A DNA stretch of 64,000 nt from Selaginella moellendorffii. Taxonomy: Eukaryota > Plantae > Lycopodiophyta. The stretch lies in the NCBI RefSeq assembly GCF_000143415.4, contig NW_003314368.1, forward strand, positions 20,792 to 84,791. The letters run 5' to 3'. The notes beneath the pieces are model-generated. The model did no database searches, was not told where the DNA came from, and saw only the letters and a list, made by a program, of their open reading frames with translations. The position numbers and the translations under genes were made by a program. This document shows, piece by piece, positions 919 to 61,066 of the stretch. Each line of letters begins with the position of its first letter. The first letter of the stretch is position 1.

Positions 919-1654
919 ATTAGTTAGTTCCTTGTTGGTGAGGGCTAGAGGGTGTTTGAGTCTTAATGTCTTTTGATGTAGAGGAGAGGTAATTTCATCA
1001 CTTATTTAAGTTAGTGTGTTTCCCATATAATATGCTTTCTATTAACTTTCAGAGTTGTTTTCTTAACTTTCAGAGTTGTTTGCTAGACTTAGGTATGCAT
1101 CAACAAGGACATTGATTTTCCTTAAGGGGGGGAGAGTGTCGTGAATATGACTTCAAGTATCGAAAGATACTTGTCCACTTATTGCCACGATGGCAGGAGG
1201 TCAGTATTGCTAGTTCCTTTTATAGTCTCCCTCCAAGCTAGTTGAGAAACTGGTTATTGTGTGTGCACTTGACCAAATGAGTATAAGGATGGAATTCCTA
1301 AATACTATTAGTTAAACATACTTGATTTGGTTAGAGAAACTCATTTATTGACTTGCACTTGTTAGTGGTAGGAACCCTCTTGATATTGACTCTAGTCCCT
1401 TAATATCATTACATGGTAACTTATTGTGTCTGCCAAACACCTTCATTATCATGCTTTATATGTTGGTTCCGCTTCAAATCCATATGCTATTTATGGTAAG
1501 TATTTAGATCTACCCAAGAGGCATATTTATGGAATGTAGAGAGTGTCCTGAACTCTATAGTGTTGTTCCTGCTCCCTCATTTGCAATTTAGTGTTATTCC
1601 ATATTTAATAAGTTTTCACATTTGTCCTAGAGACTAACTCTTGGTGCTAAGGGA

Positions 1655-34952: not shown

Positions 34953-35547
34953 TGTCGCAAATGTGACTTCAGGTATCGAAAAATATTTATCGGCTAGTCC
35001 TTACGGACACTCTTTCCTTACTGCTATGACGGCAGGAGGTCGATACAGTTGGTTCCCTTTATCGTTCCCAATTGAGCTAGTTGAGAAATTGGTCAATGAC
35101 CATACACTTAAATTGGATAAACATAAGGTAGGAACCCTATGTGTTTCTTGCTGAGCATACTCGGCCTAGTTTGAGAAACTCGTGTCATTGACTTGCACTT
35201 GCTAGTATCAAGAACCCCCGCGATATTGAGACTAGTCCCTCAATATTCGCTAGATGATAGCTTACCGTGTTTGCCAAATACCCTCGCTATCACGCCCTTT
35301 GCTCCATGATAGCTTACCGTGTCTGCCAAACACCCTCGCTATCATGCCCTTTGTGTTAGTCTCATTTCGGTCCCAAATGCTATTTATGGAAAGTGTCCAG
35401 ATTTGCTCATTTGGCATATCTATGGAATGTAGAGATCAGCCTGAACACAATGGTGTTCGTCCCGTGTCCAAATTCGCAATCTAGCGCCATTCCATATTTA
35501 ATAAGTTTCGAGCTTGTCCCAGAGACTAACTCCTGATACTAAGGGAG

Positions 35548-35647
35548 NNNNNNNNNNNNNNNNNNNNNNNNNNNNNNNNNNNNNNNNNNNNNNNNNNNNN
35601 NNNNNNNNNNNNNNNNNNNNNNNNNNNNNNNNNNNNNNNNNNNNNNN
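35548..35647. other. Assembly gap (100 N) next to the LTR poly-G run
   Basis: Run of N. Confidence 1.
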
Positions 35648-36184
35648 AAGGGGGGGGGGGGGGGATGTTGGGGGTTCCAAATGTATAGTAGGGATAGTGG
35701 TTGAAATGCATGTCCGACCATTTGAGACATTAGTTTAGCTCCCGCTAGACTGTGTTGCTCCTTGTTCTGCGTTCGGCTTGGGTCTAAGCCCAAACTCCAT
35801 GCTGCTCTAGTCGGTGGAGTACCCTCCTTCTCGCGTTAGGCCACCGGTATGCCTGAATTGTGCTAGACTCCGTCTGACACCATTTTGCGTGCAGGTGTTG
35901 GATACGGGGAGTTGGTGCTCGTGAATTGTACTGGACCCTCATTTCGTAACGCAACGGGCTTGGAGTTCGGCTCTAAATTCATGTGCGCTACATTTGGTAT
36001 CAGAGGAATTGTCTCAGCGATACCTATCCAACTTTTGTCGGTTTTTCTGACTCAAGTTGCATATGCAGAAACTTTTCTAGTAGATCCGAAGTGACCTGTG
36101 TAGGATTAGTTGGATTGCACCATTCGGTAAGAACGTTGTATGCATGTTCAGTTACTGATAGAGGCATGCATGCAGCTAGCGGGA

Positions 36185-39100
36185 TGGTGAAACGGAACCG
36201 TGCTGATGACGCTGAAACCTCTAGACGGGTGAATCGAGAGGAGGAAACTCCTGCTAGAGATGCTGCAGAAGAGGCAGAGACTGAGTCAGAGAGGAAGAGC
36301 CGGATGCTGCGGTGCTGCAGCGTATGGCTTAGGAAGTCGAGATCAAGAATTTGCGAAAGGAGATTCGCAAATTGAAGAAGGAGAACAAGAAGAGGAAGAA
36401 AGAGGCTGAGGCAGCTAAACCAACTGAGCCTAAGCAACTGGACTCCTCTTCGAGTTCTGAGGACGATGAAGTTTTGTAGCTGCCCCCGGTTGCACGAGTT
36501 TCAAAGTTCAAGCCCCCGAAACCACCCAACTTCAGAGGCATGCGGGACTATCAGGTTTTGGAAGACTGGGTCTACAATATGGAAAACTATTTCATAGCGG
36601 CAAATGTAGATGATTGTACGACAGTTGTGTGTGTGCAATCCTTTCTCACTGATCATGCCAAAACTTGGTGGCACCAGGTGTGTGCTGAAAAAGGACAGAC
36701 TAGAAGTTGGACCAAGATGCGGTCTCGTATCCGTAAAGAATACTTGCCGAATGATCTTGGTCTGAGACTTCACGTGGAGCTGCGGCGGTTAAAGCAGCAA
36801 GGGGATCTCATGTATTACGTTAATGCGTTTGCTTAGAAGTGCATTATGATTGCAAATATGAGTGACGAAGATGTTCGGAGTTATTTTCTGGAGGGTTTAA
36901 GTTCACTTTCTTGTAATGAGATTTTGAAGTTTAAGCCAAAGACGTACCTGGAGTGTAAGGAGGCGGCGCAGCAAGTTGTTTTTAGTCACTCGCTCATGGA
37001 ACAATATCAGCAACCGTATGCTAGTAACTCGGATAAGAATAAAAATTCTGGGAATAAACAAGGTGATCGGAAACAGAGGGTGGAAAGTAGGTTTCACCCT
37101 AGAGGCTCACAAGCAACGGTTAACAAAGGTGGTGGTGGTTGGAGACCACCAGCAGCTTCTTTTGGTCCTAGGCCCTCTATTCCTCCTCCTAGTGGGTACA
37201 AACAGCAGCAACCTGCAAAACCTGCTCCTAGCGGAATGGGTAGTGTGGGTCATTGCTTCCATTGTGGAGAGTCGGGATATAGGTCCTCCGAATGTCCCAA
37301 CAAGCATAAGACAAGGTCTCGGGTTAATGTCATGAGGGAAGACGGTGGTGGTGAAGCTGAAGAGGTTGACGAGTTGGTCAATGTAGACTATGAGGAATAA
37401 GAGGTGAGTAACTTTCGTTGCTTTCCTCAAGCTTTTCTTGCAGTTAATGCAAACACTAATCCGTTGATGTATTTTGTAGGCTTTGTCCGTGGACACCGAA
37501 TTTGAGTGATGATTGACACGGGAGCTACGTATAGCGTGATATCTGAAGACTTAGTTAAGTTGTTAGGATTGAATGCTGAGCAAATGTCGCCTATGCACTT
37601 CCGGTTTGCAAAAGGTGGGCAAGTAGCCAGAAAGTTTATGAGTGATGTTCCAATAAAGATATCCAAGTGGAAAGAAATAGTGGACTTGGTAGTGTTGAAG
37701 ATACCAGATTTTCAGATGGTGTTTGGTATGGATTTCTTCAACAAGTATATAAAAGGGGTTTATGGTGCTGGACAAAGTCGTATCACATTGAAGTCCGAGG
37801 GACGACTCGATGTGTCCTTCCAGTTGCAAAAGCGTTCCTCAAAGGACTGGGATGGAAAGTTCCTGACTGCGAGGGCCGCTCAAAAAGTAGCTAAAAGGGG
37901 ATGTCGGACCTTTTGGGTTCAGGTGATGGAAGCTGAGGGTATTGATGACTCAGTTCGAATCGGCAACAGGGTTGATCCTGTACCAAAGAAGATATTGGAG
38001 TTGCTGGTGCAGAATCAGGATATCTTCCCGAAGGATTTGCCACCAGGGCTACCTCCTAGCCGTGAGGTTGATCATCGGATTGAGGTTATTCCAGGTTCTA
38101 AACCACCTACAAAAGCTCCATATCAGTTGAACATCAAGGAGATGGTTGAACTTAACAAGCAACTCACGGAGCTTCTTGACAAAGGTCATATCCGACCAAG
38201 CAAGTCACCTTATGGAGCGCCGGTCCTTTTTGTTATGAAAAAGGATGGAACTATGAGGATGTGTATTGACTATCGGGCACTCAACAAGATCACAGTTAAA
38301 AACAGTTATCCTTTGCCTCGCATTGATGACTTGTTTGACCAACTTTTAAAGGCTAAGTATTTTACGCGACTTGATTTGCGGTCCGGGTATCATCAGATAT
38401 GGGTGGCGGATCAGGATGTGGAGAAGACAACCTTTAAGACTCGGTACAGATCTTATGAGTTCCTTGTCATGCCGTTCGAGTTATGCAATGCTCCGGCAAC
38501 GTTCAGTACTATGATGGATAGAATATTCGGAGATTATCTAGACACATTTGTTGTCCTATATATCGACAATGTTCTAGTCTTCAGCAAAACGTTGGAGGAT
38601 CATTTGAAACACTTGGAGCTGGTGTTTCAAAAGTTGTGCGAACACAAACTGTATGCTAAGGAAAGTAAATGCGCTTTTGGTCAATTGCGCGTAAACTTTC
38701 TCGGACATATAGTTGGTGGTGGCATGATTGAGGTCGATCCAAAGAAGGTGGAAGCGGTGAAGTCTTGGGAAGTCCCGACCATTGTATCAGATGTTCGATC
38801 CTTTCTCGGTTTGGCAGGATACTATCGCAAGTTTGTCCGCAATTTTGCAAGGATTGCTCTTTCGTTGATTGAGTTGACGAAAAGTAGTATTCTGTTTCAT
38901 TGGACACCAGCTTGTCAGCGTGCTTTTGTACGGTTGAAGGAAATCTTGACTACGGTTCCTGTTCTCAAGATCCTAGATCTTGATAAACCCTTCGAAGTGC
39001 ATTGTGATGCGTCTGGCTATGCTATTGGTGCCGTGTTGCAGTAAGATTATGACAAAGCGGTTGGTGTTACGCTAAGGTGACATGGTTGTCCCGTTGCGTT

Positions 39101-40880
39101 CTATTCCAAGAAATTGGATGAGACCCAACAAAGATGGCCAACGCATGAGAAAGAGATGTTTGCTATAGTGTCGGCCTTGGAACACTGGAGACACTACTTG
39201 GGTGGACATACCAAGGTTTATACGGATAGTAACACACTAAACTACTTTGCTATGCAGTCTAAGCTTACGCCGAAGCAGGCTCGTTGGCAAGAGAAGCTTG
39301 CTAGATATGATATTGAAATCATATATAAACCTAGTAAAGACAATGTTGTTCCGGATGTATTGAGTCATCAAGCTCAATTCCGAGCAATATTGACAATCAG
39401 TTCAGACTGGTTGGAGGACGTTTGGGCTTCGTATGGAAGTGATCCATTGGCGAAGGCAATCTTATGCCGTGCGGGGTTGTTGAAGTAGAGCCCTGGTAGC
39501 GAAGCAGCAAAAGTTGCTAGTCGCACTAATGTGAAGCTTCACTTCTCAGTTCGGGATGGGCTTATATTCTATAAGCAAGAAAGATTGTATCTTCCTTCTA
39601 AGGATCTTCAGCAATTATTTCTGCGGGAACATCATGATGTTCCGGCAGCAGGACATGGTGGGAAGCGAAAGACTCTGGCTTCATTGAAAAAGGGATTTTT
39701 CTGGTCTAGTATGGAAAGTGATGTAGCAGATTATGTCCGTTTCTGCCCTATATGCCAGCAATGTAAGCGCAGAACTGAGAAGCAGGCTGGAACGTTGCGG
39801 TGCATTCTAGCACTGGCATGGCCATTTCAGAACGTGACACTTGATTTTGTCACTTGCTTGCCGAAGTCTAAGGGTTATGATACTTTGATGGTGGTTGTGG
39901 ATCGGTTGTCAAAGATTGCACACTTCATTCCAACTGTGGGAACAGTGAATGAGAAACAAGCAGCAAAACTCTTTTTCCATGAAGTAATGCGAGTTCGTGG
40001 TCTTCCCGAAGAGATGATCTCGGATAGGGATTTGAGGTTTATAGGGAAGTTTTGGGGCACACTGTTCCAGTTGTTCGGTACCAAATTGAAGTTTAGTACA
40101 GCTTATCATCCTCAAACTGATGGGCAGACAGAATGCATGAATGCTCAAGTTGAGGATTATCTGCGGTACTATGTCGCGGTGGACCAACGCGACTGGGTTG
40201 AGCATTTGGATACAGCAAAAATATGTTATGACAACACATTTCACAGCGCTATAGGCTGTTCTCCATGGGAGATGCTACAAGGGAATGCTCGTGGGGTTCC
40301 TCAATAGATTGTTGTACCAAAACCAATGACCGAAGTGTTGGTCCCAGCCATTGAGACTTATGCGGAGTAGCTACGCCAAGGTTGGTCTAGAGCTACTGAG
40401 GCGATGGGCAAAGCTCAGGATAGGTATCGACGTGATAAGAATCAGCATCGTCGGGATGTATCCTATCAAGTGGGAGATCATGTGTGGCTATCTTCCCGAA
40501 ACTTGAACATCAAAGGATCTTTATCTCGGAAACTGTTACCGCGATATGTTGGACCCTATTGGGTGTTGGCACAAGTTGGTGATGTATCCTATAAGTTGGA
40601 TCTTCCAGATGAGTTGTCCCATGTACATGATGTGTTTCATGTCAGTTTATTGGCACCATATCGTGTTGATGCTCATCCCCCTCCGGAAGTTGTGAATGGT
40701 GATATCGAGTATGAGGTTGAGGTGATTCTCTTGTCCCACAAAGCTCGTGGTGGTCATTCCAAGGAATATTTAGTTAAGAGGAAAGGTTACCCAACTTGTG
40801 AATCAACTTGGGAACCTCTTAGTAATCTTACCCATGCTCGTGAGCTTGTCACGGAGTATGAGAATCGTAATAAAGACTAG
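36185..40880 (+). pseudogene. gag-pol polyprotein (Gag, zinc knuckle, protease, RT, RNaseH, integrase, chromodomain) with premature stops
   Basis: CFHCGESGYRSSEC, IDTGAT, LYIDNV (catalytic D to N), HCDASG, HHDVPAAGH..CPICQQ, YHPQTDGQTE and EYEVE..YLVKRKGY..STWEP. In-frame stops separate the ORFs. Confidence 0.95.
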
Positions 40881-43317
40881 CTTTTGTAAAAACCTTGTAA
40901 TAAATCTTGTAATTTCATAAAATAATATATTTCTCTAAATCAAAGTGTTGTTTCTATCGTTCGTTTGTCCTTGGGTCAGTTTTGGCAGGCTGACTTCGGC
41001 ACTTCGGTGCATGGGTCCAATCCATAACCATGGGGATAACTATTATAGACTGATCACAAGTCCCCACCTCTCTCTCGTTGACTCATTTTCGAAACGGGGT
41101 GTGGTCGTGTAAACAACTTAATCTGCCAGTTTATAATAGTTGTCTAAATCTTCCCGACAGGGTTGATTTCTTGCTCAGGGGAAGTTGGGCCTCTAGCCTT
41201 CTCCCTATGTCCTTGCAGGTAGGGATGTATCATTCCTTTGTAAGCCGAGTGGTACTTGGAGCAGCAAGGGTGGTTAACTCTATTAGTCATTTCCTTGTCG
41301 GTGACGGCCGGAGGGTGTCTGAGTCTTAGCGTCTTTGGACGTAAAGGAGAGGTCGTTCCCTAACTCATTTAAGTCGGTGTGTTTACCACATAGTGAGCTT
41401 TCCATTAACTTTTGGAGTTGTTTCCTTGACGGTTTGCTAGACTCGGGTATGCATCGATGAGGACGTCGATCTTCCCCAAGGGGGGGAGAGTGTCGCGAAT
41501 GTGACTTCGGGTATCAAAAGATACTTGTCGGCTAGTCCTTACAGACACTCTTTCCTTACTACCATGACGGCAGAAGGTTGGTACAGTTGGTTCCCTTTAT
41601 CGTTCCCAATTGAGCTAGTTGAGAAACTGGTCAATGACCATGCACTTAAATTGAATAAACATAAGGTAGGAACCCTATGTGTTTCTTGTTGAGCAGACTC
41701 GGCCTAGTTTGAGAAACTCGTGTCATTGACTTGCACTTACTAGTATCAAGAACCCCCGCGATATTGAGACTAGTCCCTCAATATTCGCTAGATGATAGCT
41801 TACCGTGTTTGCTAAACACCTTCGCTATCACACCCTTTGTGTTAGTCTCATTTTGGTCCCAAATGCTATTTATGGAAAGTGTCTAGATTAGCTCATTTGG
41901 CATATCTATGGAATGTAGAGATCGGCCTGAACACAATGGTGTTCGCCCCGTGTCCAAATTCACAATCTAAGGATATTCCATATTTAGTAAGTTTCGGACT
42001 TGTCCCAGAGACTAACTCCTGGTACTAAAGGAGGCTTGGGGTGAAAGCCCAAAGCGTGTGTCCCTCAAGGGGGGGGGGGGCACTGTGGGGGGTTCCAAAT
42101 GTATAGTAGGGATAGTGGTTGGAATGCATGTTCGACCACTTGAGATATTAGTTTGGCTCCTGTTGGGTTGTGTCGCTCCTTGTTCTGTGTCTGGCTTGGG
42201 TCTAAGCCCAAACTCCACGCTGCTCTAGTCGGTGGAGTACCCTCCTTCTCGCGTTAGGCCACCGGTATGCCTGAATTGTGCTAGACTCCGTCTGACACCA
42301 TTTTGTGTGCAGGTGCTGGATACGGGGAGCAAGTGCTCGTGGATTGTACTGGACCCTCGTTTTGTAGTGCAACAGACTTGGAGTTCAGCTCCAAATTCAG
42401 GTACGCTACATAAGGGAACTACTTCTTTTTGTGTCTTTCTCATTTTTCTCCTATTTTATGACTAGTGCTAGAAACATTGGTTTGTGGGTGAGCTGATCTT
42501 TCCAAACACCTATTTTTGGCTTTGTTATTGCTTTTTTTTCCTCCCAACTTTTTTCCAATGGTTACTCAAGTGTTTTTGTCATTTTTATGCAAATACATAA
42601 ATCATGCTACAATAAAATAAGCATGCCGGTCAACCTCAATGGACCCGTTCTCTAGGAAAATGACTAGATCGTTGTGCTAGATTCACTAGGGAGACTTCAC
42701 AGGTTCAAGGAGCTGTTTTGGAGGAAGAGCATGGTGGGAGCAGTGGTGTCTAGATCCAAGCAATGGTTGATCTTGATCCAAGTGTCGGCATGCAAGAGCT
42801 AAATGGTTCTAGAGAGTGTGGAAATGAAGAATTTATTTATAGCACAAGAGAAGCTGGTGGTGGTGGCAAAAATGAGTCTCCTGGTGCCTTAGGTGGTGAG
42901 GCAGATCTTGGTGGTGGTGATGGTAGATGTGTTGCTAGTGCCAAAGGTCATAGAAATGAGGTGGTAACTATGCTAGAGGCCAACACTATCTTGAATGAGC
43001 GAGTATGTGAGACTATTGTCTAGGCTCAAGAATGAACTATCAACAAGGTGTTAGGTGAAATGGCTTGGATGGAAAGGATCCCAAAATCTTTAAATTCCAT
43101 TTACTGTCTCAAGTAGAGTCATTAGATGCACTCACCCTATGACCTCAATATGGCTATTTATACCTCTTTCATAGAGGTTGGATTCAAGCACATTGCTGGA
43201 TCATTTATTGTGTCATCATCATTCCTCAGGACAAATTGCATAGATATGGTTACTCACGAGATTGAGCATACTTGGGATTAGAAATGGCAAATGAAATCTC
43301 AAAAGTTTGATACTTTG

Positions 43318-45152: not shown

Positions 45153-46791
45153 TCGGGACCGAGAACGAGACCGAGGCCGAGGCCGAGACCGAGCCCGAGC
45201 CCGAGCCCGAGTCTGAGTCCGAGTCCGAGTCCGAGTCCGAGTCCGAGTCCGAGTTCGAGTCTGAGAGGGTGAAAGCCCAAAGCGTTCGTCTCCCAGACCC
45301 TGGGGGGTTTGGTGAGCTCCAAAAGTATAGTAGGGGGAGGACTGCAGTCGAGCCAGTTTGGCCAGGAAAGGCTAGTTTGGCCAGGAAAGGCCAGTTTGGC
45401 CCAGGAAGGCCAGACCCAGTGTTGGGTGATGAGCTGCCCACTGGGAAGTCCAAGACTAGAGTGAACACGGACCGACAAGCGGGGTAGCTTGGTGAAGTGT
45501 TCAAGAGCCGGCTCTAGTTCCCCCGGGAGATCGACTGGCCGATGCTCCCAGTCCAAGTGTGGGTGGCACTACCTACTTGGATACCTGGTGTGGCTCAATG
45601 GAACCCGCTCTAAGCCCATGGCTAGAGCACCCAAGGGCAGAAGGCCAGGAGAGTACCTAGGTGGCTCGCATAAGGCCATGGTGTTCCGAAATGTTGCCCC
45701 AAAATCCCAGACTGTGGAAAGGAAGAGGAGCAGTCCTCTGGGGTAATGACCAAGGACACAGTCGTGTGGTGAGGAAGTCCCAGAGGACTGTGGGACTTAG
45801 TGGTCGGGCCTGTGGGTCTCGATCCAATGGCAGTGTTGGCAAATACGGCCAGGGGCAGAAAGGGACTTAGTGGGGACTGATAGAGGGATATTGGGGAAGG
45901 CTATTCCCCTTGTCGGTGGGCATCCTAAGGATGCTAAGGAGTGGATCTGAGATGACCACTCACGGATGGTTTGCTTAGTCTTGGAGAGCCAAGACTGTGA
46001 TGCAAGTGGTATTGGACTACTAGTGTGGCAAAGGTGATTGGGCATGGCCTTAGCGTAACGGGCTGCTATGTCAGTGGTACCTTTGAGTGTCAGTCATGGG
46101 ATCGGACACGTGAAGCACTTGGACCCAGTGCAAATGTTGAGTGGCATGGATGCCATTCTCGGGGCTAGCAAGTCCCAAGTCCTGGATTGGACTTATGGAG
46201 GTTGTGAATGAGACTCCTCCAAGTGGTCAGAGGTGTGGTTAAGTGACTAAAGTAGAATGGAAAATTTAGTCTCTTACATAGTCATCCTTAGTACCATGAG
46301 TTAGTCTCTAGGACTAACTCAAAACTTATTAAATATGAAATGTCTCTAGATTGTGAATTTGGACATGGAATGAATACCATTGTATTTAGGACAATCTCTA
46401 CATTTCGTAGATATGCTAAATAATTAAATTTAGACACTTTCTATAAATAGCAATTAAGACCAAATAGAACTAATAGAAGGTGCATGATAGTAAGGGTGTT
46501 TAGCAAACACAATAAACTATCATTTAACAAATATTGAGGGACCATTTCAAAGCTAATGACACAAGTTTCTCAAACCAGGCCGAGTATGCTCAGCAAAAAA
46601 CACATAAGGTTCTTATCTTATGTTTATCCGATTTAAGTGCATGGGTATTAACTAGTTTCTCAACTAGCTCAAGTGGAGATTAATAAAGGGTCTAACAATA
46701 CCGACTTCCTGCCATCATAGTAGTTAAGAAAGAATATCCAAAAGGACTAGTCGAGAGGTAACTTTTGATACCCAAAATCACATTTGCAACA
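44002..46791 (-). mobile_element. Older B-type LTR in reverse orientation, internally deleted, interrupted by a solo LTR
   Basis: The reverse complement begins TGTTGCAAATGTGA at 46791. The B-type U5 (G-box cluster, ATCCTATGGT..ACCATAGGAT) is at 44002-44350. Confidence 0.85.
44448..46278 (+). mobile_element. Solo LTR of a second family containing a GAGTCC/GAGATG minisatellite (44690-45265)
   Basis: TG..CA termini and TSD TAGTC. A paralog lies at 51827-53158. Confidence 0.88.
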
Positions 46792-47400: not shown

Positions 47401-50400
47401 TATCGTGAATGTGACTTCGGGTATCGAAAGTTACCTGTTAACTAGTCTTTTCGGATATTTTTTCCTTACTGCCACAATAGCAGAAAGTCGGCATTGCTAA
47501 ACCCTTTATTAGTCTCTACCTAAGTTAGTTGAGAAACTAATTATCACATGTGCACTTAGACCGGAAGGGCACTAAGGAAGGAAATCCTAAATTGTCATTT
47601 AGTCAAGCATACACAGTGATGAGGAATTCATGTTGTTGGCTTGCACTTGCTAGTGTTAGGAACCCCTGCAATATTGAGCTTGGTCCCTTAATATTCACTA
47701 GATAATAGCTTATTGTTTCTGCCAAACACTATCACTATCATGCACTTTGTATTAGTTCTATTTGGTCTCAATTGCTATTTATGGAAAGTGTCTAGATCAT
47801 ATCTATGGAATGTAAAGATTATTTTAAAAATAATGGTGTTGGTTCCGCATAATCTAAGGACATTCCATATTTAGTAAGTTTTGAGCTTGTCCCAGAGACT
47901 AACTCCTGGTACTAAAGATGGCTAACGGTGAAAGCCCAAAGTGTGCGTTCCTCAGGGGGGGGAGGGGGGGTGGAGGGTTCCAAATGTATAGTAGGGATAG
48001 TGGGTAGGTTGGATATGGCTGACCAACTTGAGGCATAGTCTAGCTCTTACTTGCATGCTTGTCCTTGTTTTATGTCTAGCTTAGGTTTAAGCCCAAGTTC
48101 CATACTATGCTACTTGGTGGAATACTCATATCCTCACATTAGACCACCGATATATTAAAATAGTGCTAAACTCCGTTTGGCTCTGTTTTGCATGCTGGTC
48201 CTTGCATTGGGATATTAGATATTCTATGACTATTCCAAGTCACTCTGTGCTCCTATTCTTTTGCTCCTTTGCTCCTTGGGCTATATGTTTGGGAGTCACT
48301 TCGTGTTTTAGTACCTTTGCTCTTTGGCTCCATGTTTAAGAGTTTGGCATTGTTCTTTCATTCAATGGCCCAAGACCCTAAAACTTGAGTTCCATACCAC
48401 TATCCTTTGGACACATGGCATATGACACGTGGCACATGGAGGGTTTAGGTTCCACTTCATGGTTTCTTATGGTAAATCACCATAGAATAAAAGGTGAAAA
48501 CCACATGCGCTACATTTAGTATTAGAGGATATGTCTCAACAAGTACTATCCAATGAGATTGAGCAACTTGTCTCGTTGTATACACAGAGATGGAAACAAT
48601 GATCTGAGTGGATGCACGTTTGGGTACTAAGACTTCACATTTGTTCCTTAGATATGAATTTGGCTACCTTTTTGTAGCATATTATGTAAACATACTCTTG
48701 GGCTTATAGGATGGATTAAGATATTTTGATTGCACAAGTTTGCGCTTGGGCTCGTGAGTGAGGCATATTAGCAACTCAAGGTTACACTTAGGATTAATGT
48801 TAGCCTATCAGTGGTTCCAAGAGTGGTTCGATGTACTATGGGTAAAAAAAAACCTCCTTTAGGTTTTCTCTAAATGGCAAATAGACTGGTCTGTAATTGT
48901 TTAGCACAACACTAATGGATCCTTCTTAAGCATGATCATAAGTGGATTAATCAAGACTATAGGGATGAGTTTATAGATTCAAGTAATTATTGTTGTGCTT
49001 TTTCATAAACTTTTCTTGGATTAGATTTAAGGCAATACGAATGCAAACTTGAAGTTTAGTCAAAGATGAGATCGAAAAGAGAGTTGTTAAGGACAAAAGA
49101 TCAAATATATAAATCATTTTCTCTTCTTAGAGAGATGATTTGCAACAAGGTTTTAACTCATTTCTTGTGTTCACATCATGCAATTAAGAATCCCTATCTT
49201 GATGTATATTGAGTATGATGGTCTTACCAGTGGTGTTATTGGATAGATATCGATGAAGCGCTAAATCATTTTGTCTACGCTTGCTATTGAAGAATTGGGT
49301 TACAATGCTCAATTCTTTTCCAGGGAACTTTGTTATTGCTTCTTAAGTAGTTTAGTGTTGGATTAGTTTTGAGTTTGATCTGATAGAGAGTGGTATGAGC
49401 TTGTCTATGTTGTGAACAAAGTTGGTGGTATTTGTTGTTGTAAATCTTTATCAGTAGGTATGACATTTATGTTGTATTTTGTCGAATAGAGTTGGCATTT
49501 AATACTCACGTAAACTTTTAAAGTAATAATATGGGCTTGCTTATAGTATTGCTCAATTGATAATCAAGTCATTGTGATATTTATATCATCTCCATGTGAT
49601 AATAAACAATGTATTTACAAAGTTGTTTGGTCAAATGATGATCAACCCCAAAGTGGTTGATAATAAAGCTAGTTTATTTGCACATAGTAACATTATAGTA
49701 GCTTTGACTGGATTCTCAATGGCAATCTATTATGCTAAGCTTAAATTGATATCTAATTTCTTTGAGGGTTTGCTCATTAGGTGTGGAAAAGGGTTATAAC
49801 ATTTATTTGCTATGGCTTATTGGTTTATCTATTAGCATTTAGAGTAGATTGTTGGATGGAGAAGGTGTAAAGTTGAGGCATTAACATTGCTAGCACTTGT
49901 CTTAGTGAAAGCGGCATTATTATGTTGATGTAAGCTCCTAAGTTTGGACTTCCCGGGAGGTCATTCAGCCCAATATTATTCAAACCCAAGGACACTTAAC
50001 CTTAAATATCCCAAGACCCTTAACCAATTGGAAAAAGGGGTGCACTTTTGTTCATGGGCCCTTTCCCTCTATATTTGAACCTCATGGATCGTTTCTCAAA
50101 TCGTTCCCTTTAGTTGCTTACAGTTGAGTGATAAGGAACTTTCCTTAGAGCTTGATTTTCCATGTCATTTTTTTTGTTAGTGTTTTGGCTTCACATTGGA
50201 TCTTGAAAAAGAGTGTTAATGCAATGTGGATATCTAAAGATATGGTCTTTGTGATCAAGTTTTGAATGTTCATTTTGCATTTTGCAAATGTCAATGTTGG
50301 ATATTGGAAATATGGGCATGATGTTCAATGCTTAAACATGTTATTGGGTCATAAAAATTTGTGTTGAGGTGAACCTATGTGAAGTTGTAGGTAGTAAGAA

Positions 50401-51826
50401 GTTAGTTGAGTCTTGAAAGTTTGTATTCTTAGACTGAGAGTCATTCTTTTTTTAAAATGAAAATTTTCCATAAATTTTCTTAGACTTATCCAATGGCTAA
50501 TTTGTTGATCATTTTACTCAAAAACCATTCCGTTTTCGTAAACCAATATAAACTAGTGAAGTTTTGAGTTGACTTTGGTTAACTTAAACCTTAGTAGGTA
50601 GTTTGTATAATGCAACCTGAAAAGGATGTTAACTTTTGAGGTTAAAGCAATTGAGTTGGATAGAGTCTTGAGTTGGTGCAAAAAAGTGGCTGTTGCGCTT
50701 TTCAGAAAGATCACTTTTGTGCCTTTCTTCTGTAGTGTTGTGTTTAGTAGTAGGTTGCACTTTGTATTTTGTTAGACTCTATGAGAGTAGTGAGCTCTCA
50801 TTGATCATGACTTAGTTTTGGTAGTCTTGCGCCTTAGTTGAGTATGGTGATGTCCAACTTAGTTGTTTGAGGTTGAGATGTTAGTACCTATATTATAGCT
50901 TTGTCTATGAGGAAATATGTACCAATATGAGTCCATCTCATAGTCTTCACTTTAGTTTTAATTAAGTGTTGATCATATAAAGCTAGCCTCTTTAAGGCAT
51001 GCTCAGAGCTGTTGGATAGACATATAAATGAGTTTATTGTAGTTGAGTTGGATTCGAGTGGTCATTTAGTCTGTTGGACAAATATGCAACTTAATAACAT
51101 GAGTTTAGTGTTTAAGTCTTGTGAAGGCAAGTTGAAGAGTGATTGTTAGTTGCTTTGCAATTAATAGTTATTTGTAGATTTTGTCAAGGACTTTTAACAC
51201 TTATTTTGCTCAATGATGATTTAGCAATAATAAATTTGTTTTACCGGATGGTGTTGCGGAGGATCATGTTGTTAAATTTATATAGGTTTTTCATATTGGC
51301 ATATCAACTCTACTTTTGTCAATATCATTTAATTGTGTTTAGTCCGTGGTGTTGAATTTCATTGAGTATTGGACGTGGTGAATCACTCCTTAATGATGTA
51401 TTATCTATAATTGAGTATGTTGAAGAATTGATCTTAGATACTAACTAAAGTACCTTTGACTTTGGTTAGCTTAGTTGCTAAAGAGTTTTTAGTGGTGATT
51501 CACTCTTGCTTTCTATTAGCTTTATTATGGTGTTGATAGCATTAAAGTGATGCTTTATCGTTGACATTATTGATGTCAAGATTTAAATGAAATGAGATGT
51601 CTCTCCATAGGATTGATATTGAGTTTCATTAATCTCAATAGAGATAGTGTTAATGATTTAGTTGTAGCTTTGTGTTATTGGCATTCACGCATTTGTTGGA
51701 TTAGCAACTATAATGGTGTTCAAATAAACTGAGTAACAAATTTGAGTTAGTTGTGTTCTAGACGAGATTGTTTAATAGGGTTGAGTTTTAACTTTTCCTT
51801 GAAAAGTGATTTATTTGTGGAATATG
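47401..51826 (+). mobile_element. Older truncated copy (C) of the non-autonomous element
   Basis: LTR 47401-48514 and a degenerate PBS. The internal region is colinear with 54652-57843. Confidence 0.9.
49929..50122 (-). mobile_element. Cassandra solo LTR
   Basis: TG..CA termini and TSD GTTGA. It is absent from the paralogous site in element B (about 56065). Confidence 0.93.
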
Positions 51827-53158
51827 TATGAAACATAAAATCCCTAAACCCCAAAGAGGAGCTAGTAGTGGCCACATAATAGTGGCTGGGGTGAAAGCTA
51901 AATGAGCGTAATATGTTTGAACCAAAAGCTCCGACTTGAAAAGCCGAAAGCAAGAGTGGAACTCCCAACGAAGTGCTTGAGGAACGAGCATGAAGCGAGC
52001 AATAAATGAGTCTCTAAAAAAGGGATACAAGAGGACTAACATATGACACATGGAAGTGTCCAAAATGGACCTGAGATGGAGTCCAAGATGGAGTCTAAAA
52101 TGGACCTGACATGGAGTCCAAGATGGAGTCCGAGATGGACCTGAGATGGAGTCTGAGATGGACTTAAGATTGAATCCGAAATGGATCCGAGATGGAATTT
52201 GAGATGGAGTCTGAGATAGAACCAAGACTGAGACCGAGAATGAGACTGAGTCTGAGTCCAAAACCGAGACCGAGACCGAATGCAAGTCCAAGTCTGAATA
52301 CTAATACAGGCTATTGGGTGAAAGCCCAAACCAATCATCCCTCGGGAAGGGGGGGGGGGGGGGGGGGGGTGTGACTGCAAGGGGTTCCAAAAGTATAGTA
52401 GAGAGAGTGTGGGGGTTGGACCCCAATGGAGCCTGTTTAGCCAAGAAAGGCTAGTGTGACCTAAAAAAGCTATACCCATATATTGGGTGATCATATATCC
52501 ATTGAGAAGACCAAGGTTAAAGTGAATATAGATTGATAGGCAAGGTAGCTTAATGAAGTGTTCAAGAGCTAGCTTTAGTTCCTCTGAAAGATCGAATGGT
52601 CAATGTTTCCAGTCCAAGTGTGGGTGGCACTACCTACTTGGATACCTAGTGTGGCTCAATGGAACCTCACTCTAGCCCCATAGCTAGAGCACCCAAAGGC
52701 AGAAGGTGGGGAGAGTACCCATGAGACTCACATAAGGTTATGGTGTTCCAAAATGTTGTCCTAAAGTCCTAGATTGTGGAAAGGAAAAGGAGCAATCCTT
52801 TGTTGTAATGACCAAGGATACAGTCACATGGTGAGGAAGTCTTAGAGGACAGTGGGACTTAGTGGTCAGGCCTATAGGCCTTCACCCAATGGCATTGTTG
52901 GTGAACATAGCCATAAACAGAAAGGGACTTAGTGGGGACCGAAAAAGGGATATTGGGGAAGGCGACATGTCCCTCATGTCTACGAGCATCCGAAAGATTT
53001 TAAGGAATGGATCTAGGATGATTATGCATGGATGAATGGCCTAGTCTTTGAGAGATAGGATTGTGATGTAAATGAGCATGGCCTTAACGTAATAGGTTAA
53101 TATATTGGTAGTACTTTTGGGTATTGGTCATGAGATTGGACACATGGAGCACTTAGAC
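51827..53158 (+). mobile_element. Truncated, decayed copy of the second-family LTR
   Basis: Colinear with 44448-46120, including the repeat array at 52060-52300. Confidence 0.85.
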
Positions 53159-53506
53159 TGCCAAACACATTCGCTATCATGCCCTATGTGTTAGTTCAGT
53201 TCTTGATCCATATACTATTTATGGTAAGTGTCTAGATCCACTCAAGAGGCATATTTACGGAATGTAGAGAGTGTCCTTAACTCTATGGTGTTGTTCTTGC
53301 TCCCAAATTCATGATCTAGCACCATTTCATATTTAGTAAGTTTTCATGCATATCCTAGAGATTAACTCCTAGTACTAATGGTGGCTAAGAGTGAAAGCCC
53401 AAAGCATGTATTCCTTAAGGAGGGGAGAAGGTGGGGTTTTTGTGGGGGGTTCCAAATGTATAGTAGGGACAATAATTGGAATGCATAGTCGACGGCTGAC
53501 CACCTA

Positions 53507-56500
53507 TGTCGCGAATGTGACTTCGGGTATTGAAAGTTACCTGTCGACCAGTCCTTACGGACACTCTTACCTTACTGCCACGACGGCAGGAGGTCGGTAT
53601 TGCTGGACCCTTTATCAGTCCCTCTTGTGCTAGTGGAGTTAACTAGGCATTTCGAGTGTACTTAGACCGGACGAGCATAAGGACGGAATTTCTACGTGTT
53701 ATTAGCTAAGCATACTTAGCCCGGTAAGGAGTTCCCGTCTCGTTATGTCTTGCACTGGCTAGTGACAAGAACCCTCGCGTATTGAGATTGGTCCCTCAAT
53801 ATCACTAGATGATAGCTTACCGTGTCTGCCAAACACCCTCGCTATCACGCCCTTTGTGTTAGTCTCATTTCGGTCCCAAATGCTATTTATGGAAAGTGTC
53901 TAGATTAGCTTATTTGGCATGTCTACAGAATGTAGAGATCGGCCTGAACACAATAGTGTTCGTCCCGTGTCCAAATTCGCAATCTAAGGACATTCCATAT
54001 TTAGTAAGTTTCGAGCTTGTCCCAGAGACTAACTCCTGGTACTAAGGGAGGCTTGGGGTGAAAGCCCAAAGCGTGTGTTCCTCAAGGGGGGGGGCTATGG
54101 GGGGTTCCAAATGTATAGTAGGGATAGTGGGTAGGTCGGGCATGGCCGACCAACCTGAGGCATAGTCTAGCTTCCGCTTGCGTGCCTGTCCTTTTTCTGC
54201 GTCCGGCTTGGGTCTAAGCCCAAGTTCCATTCCATGCTAGCTGGTGGAGTACCCATATCCTCACGTTAGGCCACCGGTATGCTGAAATAGCGCCAGACTC
54301 CGTTTGGCTCCGTTTTGCGTGCTGGTCTTGGCATTGGGATGTTGGTTGCTCCAGGACTGTTCCAAGTCGCTCCGGGCCCCTGTCCCTTCGCTCCTTGGGC
54401 TGTATGCTCGGGAGTTGCTCCATGGTCCAGTTCCATCACTCCTTGGCTCCACGCTTGGGAGTTTGGCACCGTTCCTTCGTTCAGTGGCCCAAGGCCCTGA
54501 ACCTCAGGTTCCTATGGACACGTGGCATGGACTTGTGGCATGTGACACATGGCATCTGTCACGTGGCACAAAGAGGGTTTAGGTTCCGCTTCGTGGTGTT
54601 ATCCTATGGTAAATCACCATAGGATAAAGGGTCAAAACCACGTGCGCTACATTTGGTATCAGAGGATGAGTCTCGGCGAGTACTATCCAATGAGATTGGG
54701 CAACTAGTCTCGTTGCATACGCAGAGATGAAAACGATGATCCGAGTGGGTACACGTTTGGGTGCAAAGACTTCACAATCGTTCCTTGGGTATGGATTTGG
54801 TTACCTTTCGTTCTAGATTATATGAGCTTGCTCTTGGGCTCATAGGATGGATTTGAGGTGTACCATTTTGCACGAGTTTTCGCTTGGGCTCGTGAGTGAG
54901 GCACATTAGCAACTCGAGGTTACATTTTGAGTTGGCAGGATTAATGTTAGCCTATCGGTGGTTCCATGAGTTGTTCCATGTACCGTGGGTAAAAGCAAAC
55001 CTCCCTGGGTTTGCTATGAGTGGCAAATAGGCTGGTCCGTAGCTGTTTAGCACGGCACTAGTGGATCCTTCCTAGGCATGATTATAAGTGGATCAATCAA
55101 GACTTTAAGGGATTAGTTTATTGGTTCAAATAGTCATGGCCATGCTCTCTTATAAACTTTTCTTCGATTAAACTGAAGGCAGTGCGAAAGCAAGTTTGAG
55201 GTTTGGTCAAAAATGAGACCGAAAAGAGAGTCATCGGGGACGGAGGATCAAATACGTAAATCATTTTCTCTTCTTGGAGAGATGATTTGCAACGAGGTGT
55301 TAACTCATTGCTTGTGTTCACATCATGCAATCAAGAGTCCCTATCTTGATGCATGTTGGAGATGGTGGTTTTACAATAGTGAGTTGTGGGATGGATAGCG
55401 GTGAAGTGCTACACCATTTTGTCTAGGCTTGCTATTGGAAGACTGGGGTTGCAATGCTTAACTCTTTTCCAGGGAACCTTGCTATTGCTCCTTGAGTAGC
55501 TTGGTGTTGGATTAGTGTTGAGTTTGGTCGGAAAGAGAGTGGTATGAGCTTGTCCGTGTTGTGAACAAAAGTTAGTGGTGTTGGTGTTGTAAATCTCTAT
55601 CGATAGGGTGTGGCATTTATGTTGCATTTTGTCGAATCGAGTTAGCACTTGATATTCACACAAACCTTTGCAGTGACATAGGCATTGTTCATAGTGTTGC
55701 TTGATTGATGATCAAGTCATTGTGATTTATATCATATCCATGTGATAATGAGCAATGTGTTTACGAAGTTGCTTGGTTAACGATGATCAACCCCAAAGTG
55801 GTTGATAGTGAAGCTAGTCTACTTGCAAGAAGTAGCATTGTAGTAGCTTTGACTGGATTCTCAATGGTGCTCCATTATGCTAAGCTTAAGTTGGTACGTT
55901 GTGTCCTTGAGGGTTTGCCCATAAGGTGTTGGAAAAAAGATATAGCATTCATTTGCTATAGCTTGTCGAATCCGTTAACACTTGGAGTAAATTGTTGGAT
56001 GGAGAAGATGTGTAGTGGAAGTATTAGCATCGCTAGCACTTGTGTTAGTAAAAGTGGCATTGTTGTTCGAGTGATGAGGAATTTTCCTTAGAGCTTGATT
56101 TTCCATGTCATTTTTTCTTGTTAGTGTTTTAGCTTCACATTGGATCTTGAAGGTGGTTGAAGAAGAGTGTTAGTGCAATGTGGACGTCCGAAGATGTGGT
56201 CTTCGTGATCAAGCTTTAGATGTTCATTTTTGCACTTTGCGGATATCAGTGTTAGATGTCGGAGATATGGGCAAAAAGAGATGTTCAAGGCTTAAGCATA
56301 CTATGGGTCTCGAGAATTTGTGTTGAGGTGAACATATGTGAAGTTGTTAGTAGGAGGAAGTTGGTTGAAGTCTTGAAAGTTTGCATTCCTGGACTGAGAG
56401 CCATTCTTTCTCTGGGATGGAAAATTTTTTTTTTCACAAATTTTCTTAGACTTTTCCAATGGCTGATCTGTTATCACTTTGTTCGAAAACCATTCCGTTT

Positions 56501-59500
56501 TCATAAGCCAATACAAACTAGTGAAGGGGTTGGAGTTGACTTCGGTTGGTTTAGATCTTAGTAGGTAGTTTGTATGATGCAGCCCGAAAGGGATGCTAAC
56601 TTTTGGGGGCTAAAGCAATTGAGTTGGATGGAGTTTGGAGTTGGTGTAGAAAAGTGGCCGTTGTGCTTTTCTAAGAAAGGTGACCCTTGTACCTTTCTTT
56701 TGTAGCGTTATGCTTGGTGGCAGGTTGCACCTTGCATTACGTTAGACTCTATGAGAGTAGTGAGCTCTCACTAATCTTGACTTGGTCTTGGTGGCCCTGC
56801 GCCTTGGCTGAAGATAGTGATGTCCAACTTAGTTGTTTGAGGTTGAGATGTTAGTACCTGTACTATAGCTTTGTCTATGAGGAGGTTGTGTACCAATATG
56901 AGTCCATCTCATGGTCTTCACTTTAGTTTCGACTGAGTGTTGATCATGCATAGCTAGCCTCTTCAAGGCATGCTCAGAGCTATTGACTAGGTGTGCTAGT
57001 GAGCTTATCACAGTTGAGTTGGATTTGAGTGGTCATTTAGTTTGTGCTTATCTATGAACTTTTATCTCATACCTGGGGTATTACATTCATATTGGATGAG
57101 TATATGACTCGATGATATGAGTTGGTGTTTGGGTCTTGTGAACGCAAGTTGAGGAGTGATTGTTAGTTGCTTTGCGACTAGTGATTACTTGTAGACTTCA
57201 TCAACGACAGTTGACACTTGCTTTGCTCGATGATGATTTAGCAGTGATGGGCTTGCTTTACCGGATGGTGTTGCGGAGGATCGTGTCGTTAGACTTGCAT
57301 AGGTTTTCTATGTTAGTATATCGATTCTATCTCTGTCGATATCATTTGGTTACGTTTAGTCCGTGGTGTTGGATTTCATTGAGTCTTGGATGTGGTGATT
57401 CACTCTTTGATGAAATATTATCTGTAACTGAGTATTGCTGAAGGATTGGTCTCGGATACTAAGTATAGTATCTTCGACTTTGGTTAGCTTGGTTGCTGGA
57501 AAGCTTCGAGTGGTGATTCACTCTTGCTTTCTTCTAGCTTTGTCCTGATGTTGATGGCATTGAAGTAATGCCTTGTCATTGATATTGTTGATATTGAGAT
57601 CTGAGTGAAATGAGATATCCTTCCAAGGATTGATATTGAGTTTCATTAGTCTTGATGAATATTGTGTTGATGATTTGGCTATAGCTTTGTGTTATTGGCA
57701 TTTGTGCATTTGCTAGTTAGCAACTGTGTTAACGTTCAAATGAACTGAGTGGCAAGTTGAGTTAGTTGTGTTCTAGACAAGATTATTTAGTAGGGGTTGA
57801 GCTTTGAGCTTTTCCTTGAAAAGTGATTTAGTCATGGACTATGCTAACTCTACAAGTGGGAGAGTTAGTGATCGATGTTGGAATATTTTGAATCCTTATG
57901 GGATTTTAGTTGAAATATATCAATCATTGATGATTCTTCTTGTGCTTGCTATGAAGTGAGTTACGTCTTGCTATAGATGGATTCATGAAGGATCATTTAG
58001 TGATCACTTGTTGAGCATAGCTCCATTGTGCTTAGCTTTTGGATTGATGCAGAAATGCTCTTTATTAGCTTTGGCATTATGAAGTTTGGCTTATGGATGT
58101 GTTGAAGAAGACATTGTGGGTTGCACCATGATTTCTTCTTTAGCATTGAAGTTTGCTTCTATGAGACTCGTGATCATTATTAGGCAAGACTTAGCTATAG
58201 GCTTCTTCGAGCTTTTGGTTCTTTGACTTTTCATACTCATCGTTCCATTTGTCCGGAGTTATTTGGGGAAGGCATTTTTGGCTCTTTAACTTCGATGTTG
58301 AAGTTGGTTTTTGCATCTAGCAATCATTGGTGATGATTGACTATCATCTAGGAAAGTTGATTATCCTTGTCAGAGGTTTTGCTTGATTATCGTTGATCTA
58401 GATTGATTCGCTATTCTTCAGGATGGTGGATTCCTTCTTAGATGATGATTTTGCATCTCTTTATTGATGGGATGATTGATGATCTTTCATGATGGTTAGT
58501 TGTTCTTTTTGATGGCTTATGGCTTTTCGCAATACCACATATTCTTTGTGGTTTGCTCTGGATTGGTCTCTTGGGTTTGAGACGTCAGTAGGATGTTGCT
58601 GACACTTGCTTAGGCAACTTGAGTTCCTTGGTATTGTTGGCTGGGATCTATTCAGATTGGCTTTTATGATAGTTGGCAGGCATGAGTGTTTGTTGGTCTT
58701 ACCACATTCATTCTCTTCTGTTGATTGTTGCTCGAGTTAGTTTTGATAGATTTGGATGTTATTTCCTTTGGGTGATACATTCGCGAGCATTGTGCTTGTT
58801 AGTCAATGATATTTTGTGTTCTTTGAGTTATCTTTCGTAAGTTGTTTGGCATTCTGTCTGCAATCTTTAATAGTTAAACTTTATCATTGAGTTTACTTAA
58901 TGATATACTTGCTATTGAATTTTGTTTGATGGTGAATCCTATGTTTACCAAATATGCTGATCTTGGTGGTTCCTGCACTATAATACTAGTTTATCGGATG
59001 ATAACTTACTTGGAATACATTTGTGTTCTCATCTAAGCTTTATTCACTGATAATTAAATCTTTAAGATATCATTGTTTATGACTTTGATATAGTCCCTAT
59101 CTATTGATCTTTGAGTTTGGGCCAGTATAGGCAGACTGGCTTCGGCACTTCGTGTGCATGTTGAAATCTCTAGTCATGGGGTAACTACTGTCGACTGGTC
59201 ACATAACCCGCCTCTCTGTCGATGTTCCTTATTCTGTGAAAGGGCGTGACCGTGTAAACAACTCTACACTGCCTGTTGACAGTAGCCTATCTAAACCTTA
59301 CCGACGGGTTTGGTTTCTTTGCTCATGAGGGTTGGGGCCTCTGGCTTCTCTCTCTATGTCTCTGCGGGCAGGGCATATCACACTTTTGTAGCTGGGTGAC
59401 ACCCAGAGCAGCAAGGGTGGCTGACTCCGTTAGTCATTTCCTTGTCGGTGACGGCCGGAAGGTGTCTGAGCTGGTAGCGCATCCGCGTTAGACAAAGAGG

Positions 59501-60791
59501 TTCCCCCTAACTCATTTAAGTTGGTGCATTTCTCACATAGTGTGAGTACCGTGAACTTTTTCTGGAGTTGTTTCCTTGGCGGTATTTTAGACTCGAGTAT
59601 GCATCGACGAGGACGTCGATCTTCCCAAGGGGAGGAGAGTGTCGCGAATGTGACTTCGGGTATCGAAAGTTACCTGTCGACCAGTCCTTACGGACACTCT
59701 TACCTTACTGCCACGACGGCAGGAGGTCGGTATTGCTGGACCCTTTATCAGTCCCTCTTGTGCTAGTGGAGTTAACTAGGCATTTCGAGTGTACTTAGAC
59801 CGGACGAGCATAAGGACGGAATTCCTACGTGTTATTAGCTAAGCATACTTAGCCCGGTAAGGAGTTCCCGTCTCGTTATGTCTTGCACTGGCTAGTGACA
59901 AGAACCCTCGCGTATTGAGATTGGTCCCTCAATATCGCTAGATGATAGCTTACCGTGTCTGCCAAACACCCTCGCTGTCACGCCCTTTGTGTTAGTCTCA
60001 TTTCGGTCCCAAATGCTATTTATGGAAAGTGTCTAGATTAGCTTATTTGGCATGTCTACAGAATGTAGAGATCGGCCTGAACACAATAGTGTTCGTCCCG
60101 TGTCCAAATTCGCAATCTAAGGACATTCCATATTTAGTAAGTTTCGAGCTTGTCCCAGAGACTAACTCCTGGTACTAAGGGAGGCTTGGGGTGAAAGCCC
60201 AAAGCGTGTGTTCCTCAAAGGGGGGGGGGGGGGGCTATGGGGGGTTCCAAATGTATAGTAGGGATAGTGGGTAGGTCGGGCATGGCCCACCAACCTGAGG
60301 CATAATCTAACTTCTGCTTGCGTGCCTGTCCTTGTTCTGCATCCGGCTTGGGTCTAAACCCAAGTTCCATTCCATGCTAACTGGGGGAATACCCATATCC
60401 TCCCGTTAGGCCACCAGTATGCTGAAATAACCCCAAAATCCATTTGGCTCCGTTTTGCGTGCTGGTCCTGGCATTGGGATGCTGGTTGCTCCAGGACTGT
60501 TCCAAGTCGCTCCGGGCCCCTGTCCCTTCGCTCCTTGGGCTGTATGCTCGGGAGTTGCTCCGTGGTCCGGTTCCATCACTCCTTGGCTCCACGCTTGGGA
60601 GTTTGGCACCGTTCCTTCGTTCAGTGGCCCAAGGCCCTGAACCTCGGGTTCCTATGGACACGTGGCATGGACTCGTGGCATGTGACACGTGGCATCTGTC
60701 ACGTGGCACAAAGAGGGTTTAGGTTCCGCTTCGTGGTGTTATCCTATGGTAAATCACCATAGGATAAAGGGTCAAAACCACGTGCGCTACA
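53507..60791 (+). mobile_element. Non-autonomous LARD-like LTR retrotransposon (element B), recent
   Basis: TSD ACCTA. Near-identical LTRs 53507-54651 and 59640-60791, PBS TGGTATCAGAG and PPT AAGGGGAGGAGAG. The 5-kb interior has no long ORF. Confidence 0.95.
60657..60708 (+). promoter_or_regulatory. G-box/ABRE cluster in the B-type LTR (also 54518-54569)
   Basis: GACACGTGGC twice, TCACGTGGC and CTCGTGGC within about 50 bp. Confidence 0.55.
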
Positions 60792-61066
60792 ACCTAAAAC
60801 ATTAGTTTGGCTTCCACTAGCTTGTGTCACTCTTTGTTCTATGTCTAACTTGGGTCGAAGCCCAAACTCCATGCTACTCTAATCGATACCCTCCTCCTCA
60901 CGTTAGGCTACTAGTATGCTGAAATTGTGCCAAACACTGTCTAACACTATTTTGTATGCAAGTGTTGGATACGGGGAGCCAATGCTCATAGAATTGAGAG
61001 TGTACTACACCCTCATCTTGTAGTGCAACGGCCTTGAAGTTCAACTCTAAATTCAAGTGTGCTATA

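Follow-up and report, generated by a model that had tools for sequence, protein, structure and literature searches.

A candidate RNA fold of about 300 nt in the 3' untranslated region shared by a chromovirus and a non-coding LTR element of Selaginella moellendorffii

The window, a 64,000-nt stretch of Selaginella moellendorffii DNA (assembly GCF_000143415.4, contig NW_003314368.1, positions 20,792 to 84,791 of the forward strand), is land-plant DNA crowded with nested long terminal repeat (LTR) elements. Two of these, the Ty3/gypsy chromovirus A and the non-coding element B, share a 3' untranslated region (UTR), for which an original prediction, made from the letters of the window, had proposed about 1.1 kb of covarying RNA structure running through the polypurine tract (PPT) into the U3 part of the LTR. 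Comparison of the two copies confined the covariation to a core of ~300 nt at the start of the UTR, which is probably a selected RNA fold and in which a pseudoknot is predicted here.

Elements A and B

The two elements and their parts are as follows (all coordinates are those of the window).

34953..42410, + strand: element A, Ty3/gypsy chromovirus, target duplication TAAGG
40869..40970, + strand: A/T-rich stretch around the pol stop of A, containing three TGTA and two AATAAA (40869 and 40899)
53507..60791, + strand: element B, intact non-autonomous LTR element of the large retrotransposon derivative (LARD) type, 5-bp target duplication ACCTA
53507-54651 and 59640-60791: LTRs of B, differing at 28 of 1145 places
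54654..54664, + strand: primer-binding site (PBS) of B, followed by a leader of ~110 nt alignable to A
54665..59099, + strand: interior of B, non-coding and G/T-rich, ~80% like element C (48465-51826)

The gag-pol of A is split into six frames (36480-40880) with the chromodomain last, and the domains found were Gag, protease (PR), reverse transcriptase (RT), RNase H (RH), integrase (IN) and Pfam Chromo; the order gag-PR-RT-RH-IN with a C-terminal chromodomain, together with LTRs, PBS, PPT and target-site duplication, is that of a Ty3/gypsy chromovirus. Of the 120 protein relatives listed for A, none exceeded ~60% identity. The U3 regions of its two LTRs differ by 6.8%, and its 5' LTR contains a 52-bp tandem duplication (35247-35363) and a 100-N gap at a G run (35548-35647). 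The AATAAA pair and the three TGTA motifs near the pol stop, which B lacks, lie upstream of the structured domain, and the A/T-rich stretch that holds them is a possible internal poly(A) signal, judged by its motifs.

No similarity between the 4.4-kb interior of B and the gag-pol of A was detected by blastn or tblastn, and the longest open reading frame in this interior encodes 121 aa. The coding region of A, to which that of B had been described as barely related, therefore has no counterpart in B, which by its sequence is a non-autonomous, LARD-type element (large, with LTRs, PBS and PPT but no protein coding) and not a diverged coding copy. Its PBS is of a type that we take to match the initiator methionine tRNA. 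The high copy number and conserved interior of LARDs were also found in the B family: 62,264 contigs of run X1 matched 58700-60800 (a depth, which is no copy number), with depth extending over the last 400 interior bases of B, the interior of C is conserved at ~80%, and the family was present in run X4, which carries a second organism label. RNA reads, at ~12% per run and with no control gene, numbered 0 in X22 and 1 in X23 on 58700-60800, and 0 in X24 on 59110-59420. The site into which B inserted is an older LTR of the same superfamily (53134-53506 and 60792-61064).

From the A type, B retains only the leader, the 3' UTR and parts of the LTR. Between the LTRs, the two elements are alike over ~110 nt following the PBS and over the final 540 nt ahead of the 3' LTR (75.5% identity, from 59100/40953), and this latter similarity begins within 20 nt of the first helix of the core (59119/40973). 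The interior of B (54660-59100) consists of 37% T and 15% C; on the + strand, 12 of its 36 windows had a fold z below -2, versus 3 of 27 in the older copy C, yet at a mean fold z of -1.43 it displayed no excess of compensation relative to C.

A covarying core in the shared 3' UTR

The core, named Domain I, comprises the following predicted parts.

59119..59417, + strand: Domain I of B, covarying core, ~300 nt
40973..41270, + strand: homologue of Domain I in A
59119-59142, + strand: P1 hairpin
59129..59134, + strand: 5' strand of the predicted pseudoknot, in the P1 loop (A: 40983-40988)
59185-59195/59275-59285, + strand: long helix closing the multiloop
59197-59202/59246-59251 and 59210-59215/59241-59245, + strand: helices within the multiloop
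59252-59259, + strand: mini-hairpin GU-GUAA-AC in the multiloop, kept in A and B
59269..59274, + strand: 3' strand of the predicted pseudoknot, in the multiloop (A: 41123-41128)
59293-59316, 59327-59354, 59355-59377 and 59383-59417, + strand: further hairpins, the last containing 59392-59406

The helix arms quoted in the original prediction all lay at or beside the positions given for them, among them those of the long helix (41040/41129 and 59185/59275), GGTCAGT at 40974 and GGCCAGT at 59120, GATCAC at 41052 and GGTCAC at 59197, and the 15-nt hairpins at 41245 and 59392. RNAalifold applied to A and B over 59115-59420 gave 79 pairs, 11 of them changed on both sides and none broken. For the null, one copy was held fixed and the letters of the other were re-dealt only between columns alike in base and CG/CHG context. 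Compared with this null, the core had a consensus energy of -76.3 versus -52.1+-5.9 (0/100 as low) and 11 compensations versus 6.1 expected (1/100). Pairs changed by transversion, counted apart as the original prediction had advised, stayed at the null level (2 versus 2.2).

In an out-of-sample test, one copy was folded alone and the other was read on the resulting pairs (Watson-Crick pairs only, averaged over both strands). With B folded and A read, the UTR contained 11 compensated pairs versus 2.8 expected (0/2000), ten of them within 59122-59405; in the reverse direction 8 were found versus 2.5 (5/2000). None of ten control comparisons between B and C had a significant excess (best 166/2000). 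In tiles of 280 columns, the energy z of B/A was -4.6, -2.6 and -3.5, versus about +0.7 to -2.8 in 11 control tiles, and the consensus energy z of the first B/A tile was -4.6 and -5.5. A full enumeration of the helices common to A and B that carry one compensation or more returned 17, versus 9.4 expected (2/40).

A predicted pseudoknot

A pseudoknot between the P1 loop and the multiloop, not contained in the original prediction, is predicted by modelling. Its 3' strand lies ~140 nt downstream of the P1 loop, directly preceding the 3' arm of the long helix, and its strands form six Watson-Crick pairs in both copies, the pair 59129/59274 being A-U in B and U-A in A, with no major other letter at either place in the family contigs. 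It is the only loop helix of at least 5 bp in both copies among 235 unpaired columns. When columns were permuted, any such loop helix arose in 4/400 trials and a compensated one in 1/400; when substitutions were re-dealt, the counts were 3/400 and 0/400. Another candidate, a long-range helix of 10 bp (59241-59250/59977-59986) that is apparently compensated twice, was dropped, as 59977 and 59981 differ in most of the family depth.

Letters of the core in the wider family

Public contigs were aligned to 59110-59420 and all 36 variable places were examined. At 59278, the letter is T in 99.4% of X1 depth, while 59192 has no other letter, so that the long-helix pair singled out in the original prediction as an A:U to C:G transversion is C·U in most family copies. 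With this non-family pair masked, out-of-sample compensation was still 10 versus 2.8 (0/2000), and in the other ten compensated pairs no alternative letter exceeded 8% in X1. This leaves two compensated transversions, at 59300/59309 and at the pseudoknot pair 59129/59274. One pair beyond the long helix, at 59184/59286, the major family letters give G·U where A has A-U, and of five other letters with a share of 10-50% at paired places, four still allow pairing, as G·U, and the fifth disrupts a terminal pair. Family variation in X1 was mostly C>T (114) and G>A (98), among 345 places.

Domain II, polypurine tract and U3

Downstream of the core, the following features were distinguished.

59438..59613, + strand: Domain II, predicted 12-bp long-range helix 59438-59449/59602-59613, weaker support
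59625..59639, + strand: polypurine tract, predicted within a hairpin
59640..59934, + strand: first part of U3 (U3 extent inferred), hairpin series and predicted three-way junction 59794-59863, moderate support
59935..60222, + strand: second part of U3, predicted to form a long stem that holds a symmetric AUUU/AUUU loop (60018-60021/60132-60135)

The Domain II helix encloses a hairpin conserved by position, not by sequence. Against the null, its energy was reached in 1/100 and its compensations in 11/100 trials; a second test gave 0/60 for energy and 46/60 for pair types. A duplicated motif around TTTCCTTG (59434-59452 and 59571-59589) is present in both A and B, and each motif can pair with more than one of the CAAGG/GAGGA partners, including the PPT, making alternative folds possible.

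In the first part of U3, seven LTR copies (59640-59945) beat the energy null on the + strand (0/60; minus strand 6/60) and had 20 versus 16.2 pairs of two types (5/60). In a structure fitted to this part, both sides had changed in 13 pairs versus 7.8 expected (7/500), most of these changes being confined to single decayed copies; one of its ten helices (helix 5) is out of register, which counts against these totals. This part thus has moderate support as a folded region, best for the three-way junction. Out of sample, no excess of compensation was found in U3 (2 versus 2.0, 2 versus 1.4, 1 versus 0.45 and 0 versus 0.35). The long-range arms proposed there, GTTAGTCTC at 59991 and GAGACTAAC at 60158, are present, whereas the hairpin GCTGAG-CATA-CTCGGC occurs in the 5' LTR of A (35150) but its 3' LTR reads otherwise (41688).

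The second part of U3 is nearly identical in the copies A3, B3 and E and so holds no covariation information; over 59935-60222, A and B are 93% identical, differ by transitions only and give no excess over the null. Transversions between A3 and B3 numbered 0/249 in late U3 and 31/302 in early U3 (Fisher p 4e-9), although late U3 can diverge, the same block differing from B3 by 21 in D3 and by 37 in G. Between 59935-60184 and 41785-42034, A3, B3 and E have 0-1 transversions in 249, and flanking U3 has 19-31 in ~300. The late-U3 block is likely, from these counts, to reflect a recent exchange of modules between helper and parasite lineages. Of the proposed 1.1 kb, the defensible extent is a core of ~300 nt that is probably under selection as an RNA fold, ~500 nt of plausible, weakly supported further structure and ~290 nt that are uninformative.

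Searches for known families and homologues

The original prediction had recognised no known family, and in Rfam 15 no match reached the gathering threshold. The best sub-threshold matches were c4-a1b1 (23 of 46.7 bits, E 0.004), taken as chance at half the gathering score and in A only, and toga_FSE (21-22 of 40 bits). No Rfam ribozyme or exoribonuclease-resistant RNA (xrRNA) matched up to E=10, and CUGANGA, the hammerhead core motif, was absent from either strand of the 3' regions of A and B. The GAAA hairpin near 60190 has a likeness to domain V of group II introns, which Rfam did not support. ARAGORN found 0 tRNAs and Rfam no 5S or tRNA match; TRIMp3 elements (Cassandra, Helenus, Ajax) were set aside, as no 5S- or tRNA-derived LTR sequence was found and B, at 7.3 kb, is not small. 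ENEs (expression and nuclear retention elements) have a U-rich internal loop between helices with adjacent G-C pairs and stabilise RNA through a triplex with poly(A). No internal loop with at least 4 U on both sides was found in A, B or D; one loop shared by A and B has 2-3 U per side (60018/60132; no shuffle control).

A DNA-pattern search for outside homologues found nothing in viral_contigs or metagenome_contigs, and blastn found 0 matches in phages. Eight viral matches to the P1-hairpin pattern were judged to be chance, since their flanks are unrelated and, in seven of eight, the partner word is absent from the 200 nt that follow. Scans with proteins returned no viral locus and 80 + 29 distant ones; among these 109, blastn and nhmmer detected no UTR or LTR similarity, and the covariance model R1, run on 95 of the 109 and on the window, scored only the two training copies. 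Chromovirus-like integrase fragments occurred in 29 contigs of prokaryotic genome assemblies (L081-L109), probably as eukaryotic contamination. No title or abstract start described the element family or the fold, in a search covering few subscription journals and no repeat databases, so that the family may be catalogued.

Other repeats and features of the window

Two further features were noted.

25306-26391: GH3-family gene fragment, marking a land-plant host
919..1136, + strand: decayed third copy of the UTR, 3' half only, with an LTR directly after it (1137-1654)

The window is a nest of eight or more related LTR copies. In LTR copies that have otherwise diverged, a hairpin or site of GGGTGAAAGCCC type is found again and again (4213, 45267, 47926, 52299-52409, 53389, 54055 and 60190), with a G run and a TATA-like motif after it; this is probably the promoter block. 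A MITE-like (miniature inverted-repeat transposable element) inverted repeat of 130 bp, 85% complementary, lies at 8829-8958 and 9307-9436, and a 120-nt window near 9080 had a fold z of -16. A separate repeat family contains 12- and 23-bp tandem arrays (44600-45900 and 52017-52963).

Possible roles of the core

We propose, with a probability of roughly 0.45 and by analogy with known elements, that the ~300-nt domain is a cis mark by which full-length RNA is recognised and packaged by helper proteins. A non-coding element would keep what is needed in cis, and B keeps the PBS leader, parts of the LTR and the UTR; its RNA would be mobilised by proteins of the A type, with the core folding on the sense RNA. 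The simplest reading of the transversion-free U3 block is a recent template switch; since switching requires a particle that contains both RNAs, A and B RNAs would then have been packaged together. Ectopic gene conversion could also have produced the block. Some transcripts of A may end at the upstream AATAAA cluster, and such use of an internal poly(A) site would leave translated A RNA without the domain and confine it to genomic RNA. Selection or packaging of genomic RNA is favoured because B retains the UTR from the very edge of the folded domain, and because of the transversion-free block and the AATAAA cluster.

Several points weigh against this proposal. Full copies of the core number only two; the letters of A are those of a single copy; at the long-helix pair claimed as a transversion, 99% of family depth reads C·U; and the pseudoknot was chosen post hoc from 17 candidate helices in two sequences, with low family depth and 5-28% other letters at its 3' strand. 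Pairing on the sense strand, as originally claimed, is likely, given that the + consensus is more stable and that the GUAA, UUCG and GAAA loops read on this strand, but it is not established: the minus strand also beats the energy null (0/100) and the strand-neutral count of G·U to A·C is 39:33 (p=0.56). Unusual stability was not borne out, since the mean z of 120-nt windows (-0.77 in B and -0.62 in A) is no lower than in the B interior (-1.43) or the coding region of A (-0.99), and stability is ordinary throughout the 3' region. The poly(A) reading consists of motif counts in one copy, and no data here separate packaging from export or stability. The known packaging signals of Ty1 and Ty3 lie mostly at the 5' end. 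MiniTy3 needs the 5' 426 nt in addition to 73 nt of the 3' end (PMC11381356, in excerpt).

Some of these points also favour an unlikely reading in which the pairings are unselected and arose by methylation (C>T/G>A at symmetric sites), by arm-templated correction during reverse transcription and by recombinational capture of the A 3' end by B. Most compensations are transitions, 7 of 10 at the family level change from G-C in B to A-U in A, as decay by methylation would, C>T and G>A lead the family variation, and modules were clearly swapped between lineages; the success of the minus strand and the ordinary stability fit as well. The context-matched null, however, expects 2.8 pairs where 10-11 were seen, controls with similar decay had none in excess, and the two compensated transversions persist. 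The persistent C·U mismatch and the G·U pairs speak against arm correction, and since the LTRs of A differ by only 6.8% in U3, many private double changes in A are improbable.

Packaging and export fit the anatomy best among the roles first suggested. An element for nuclear export or RNA stability that host factors recognise, of the type of the MusD transport element (MTE), the intracisternal A particle (IAP) RNA transport element (RTE) or the expression and nuclear retention element (ENE) of Evade, is a credible if rather doubtful alternative to packaging. It would be needed by coding and non-coding elements alike and would suit a domain between pol and the PPT; the MTE too has long-range tertiary pairings (PMC5767303, in excerpt), an Arabidopsis LTR element is made more mobile by an ENE in its 3' UTR (PMC12501189, in excerpt), A and B have the AUUU/AUUU loop in common, and passages of a review describe the export of plant LTR RNA as not directly studied (PMC12786077). 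On the other side, the same passages describe plants as using TREX and not the NXF1 route of MTE and RTE, loops with at least 4 U on both sides are lacking, and an upstream poly(A) site in A would strip the domain from translated RNA. That the domain organises reverse transcription, through PPT access, strand transfer or end-to-end pairing of the genome, seems quite improbable: these steps are needed by both elements and the domain adjoins a PPT predicted to be paired, as in Ty3 (PMC11381356, in excerpt), but the part with the best support sits 210-510 nt upstream of that tract and A and B share no 5'-3' complementarity of at least 9 nt. Least credible is that the core frees a 3' subgenomic RNA as a new self-cleaving ribozyme or as a fold that blocks exoribonucleases. 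The compact fold with its loop-junction pseudoknot and conserved GUAA tetraloop, at the 5' edge of the shared region, would suit this idea, and retrozymes exist among non-autonomous plant LTR elements (PMC4918200, in excerpt); the Rfam and hammerhead-motif searches gave it no support, and a cut within the genomic RNA would sever the template of reverse transcription, whereas the ribozymes of retrozymes lie in the LTRs. Unlikely, too, is the broader idea of an undescribed tertiary fold with its own activity (ribozyme, nuclease-blocking pseudoknot, or Gag or export signal), forming a poly(A)-linked switch between translated and packaged RNA that a genome-filling non-coding parasite has hijacked.

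For the question of how plant helpers carry non-coding LTR elements, the A/B pair delimits a candidate signal of 300 nt with a specific predicted pseudoknot, in an abundant family from which hundreds of genomic copies can be expected for covariation analysis.

Comparison with known systems

Group I chromodomains are known from non-seed plants (PMC3350952, in excerpt). Like Tcn1 and Galahad, which have such domains, A has a Pfam Chromo domain, a resemblance in domain content. Retrozymes, the ribozyme-bearing non-autonomous plant LTR elements (PMC4918200), resemble B in being non-autonomous, endowed with structured RNA and dependent on Ty3/gypsy elements, as is proposed for B. B differs from them in having LTRs of 1.15 kb and an interior of 5 kb, not 350 bp and 600-1000 bp, and the hammerhead that each retrozyme LTR carries was not found in the 3' regions of A or B. 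The MTE lies near the 3' end and is shared with the non-coding ETn. It contains a kissing loop, a pseudoknot and long-range tertiary pairings (PMC5767303), and a long-range pairing is likewise predicted in the core, to which export activity could be attributed by analogy; the MTE and the IAP RTE belong to mammalian betaretrovirus-like elements using NXF1, and no sequence relation is expected. The Evade/Copia93 ENE (PMC12501189; also treated in PMC7583470, in excerpt) is, as here, a structured element in the long 3' UTR of a plant LTR retrotransposon, but the feature of the core is a predicted pseudoknot and not a U-rich loop. PMC7215508 (in excerpt) describes LARDs as non-coding elements whose RNA secondary structure is conserved and which are assumed to depend on trans-complementation. 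B is likewise large (7.3 kb), with PBS, PPT and target-site duplication, no coding capacity and very many copies; what differs here is that the window also contains a likely helper, whose 3' region is homologous and structured, and that the structure is localised and was tested for covariation. The core is predicted to be a structured cis element of an LTR retroelement, to which the predicted pseudoknot is added here.

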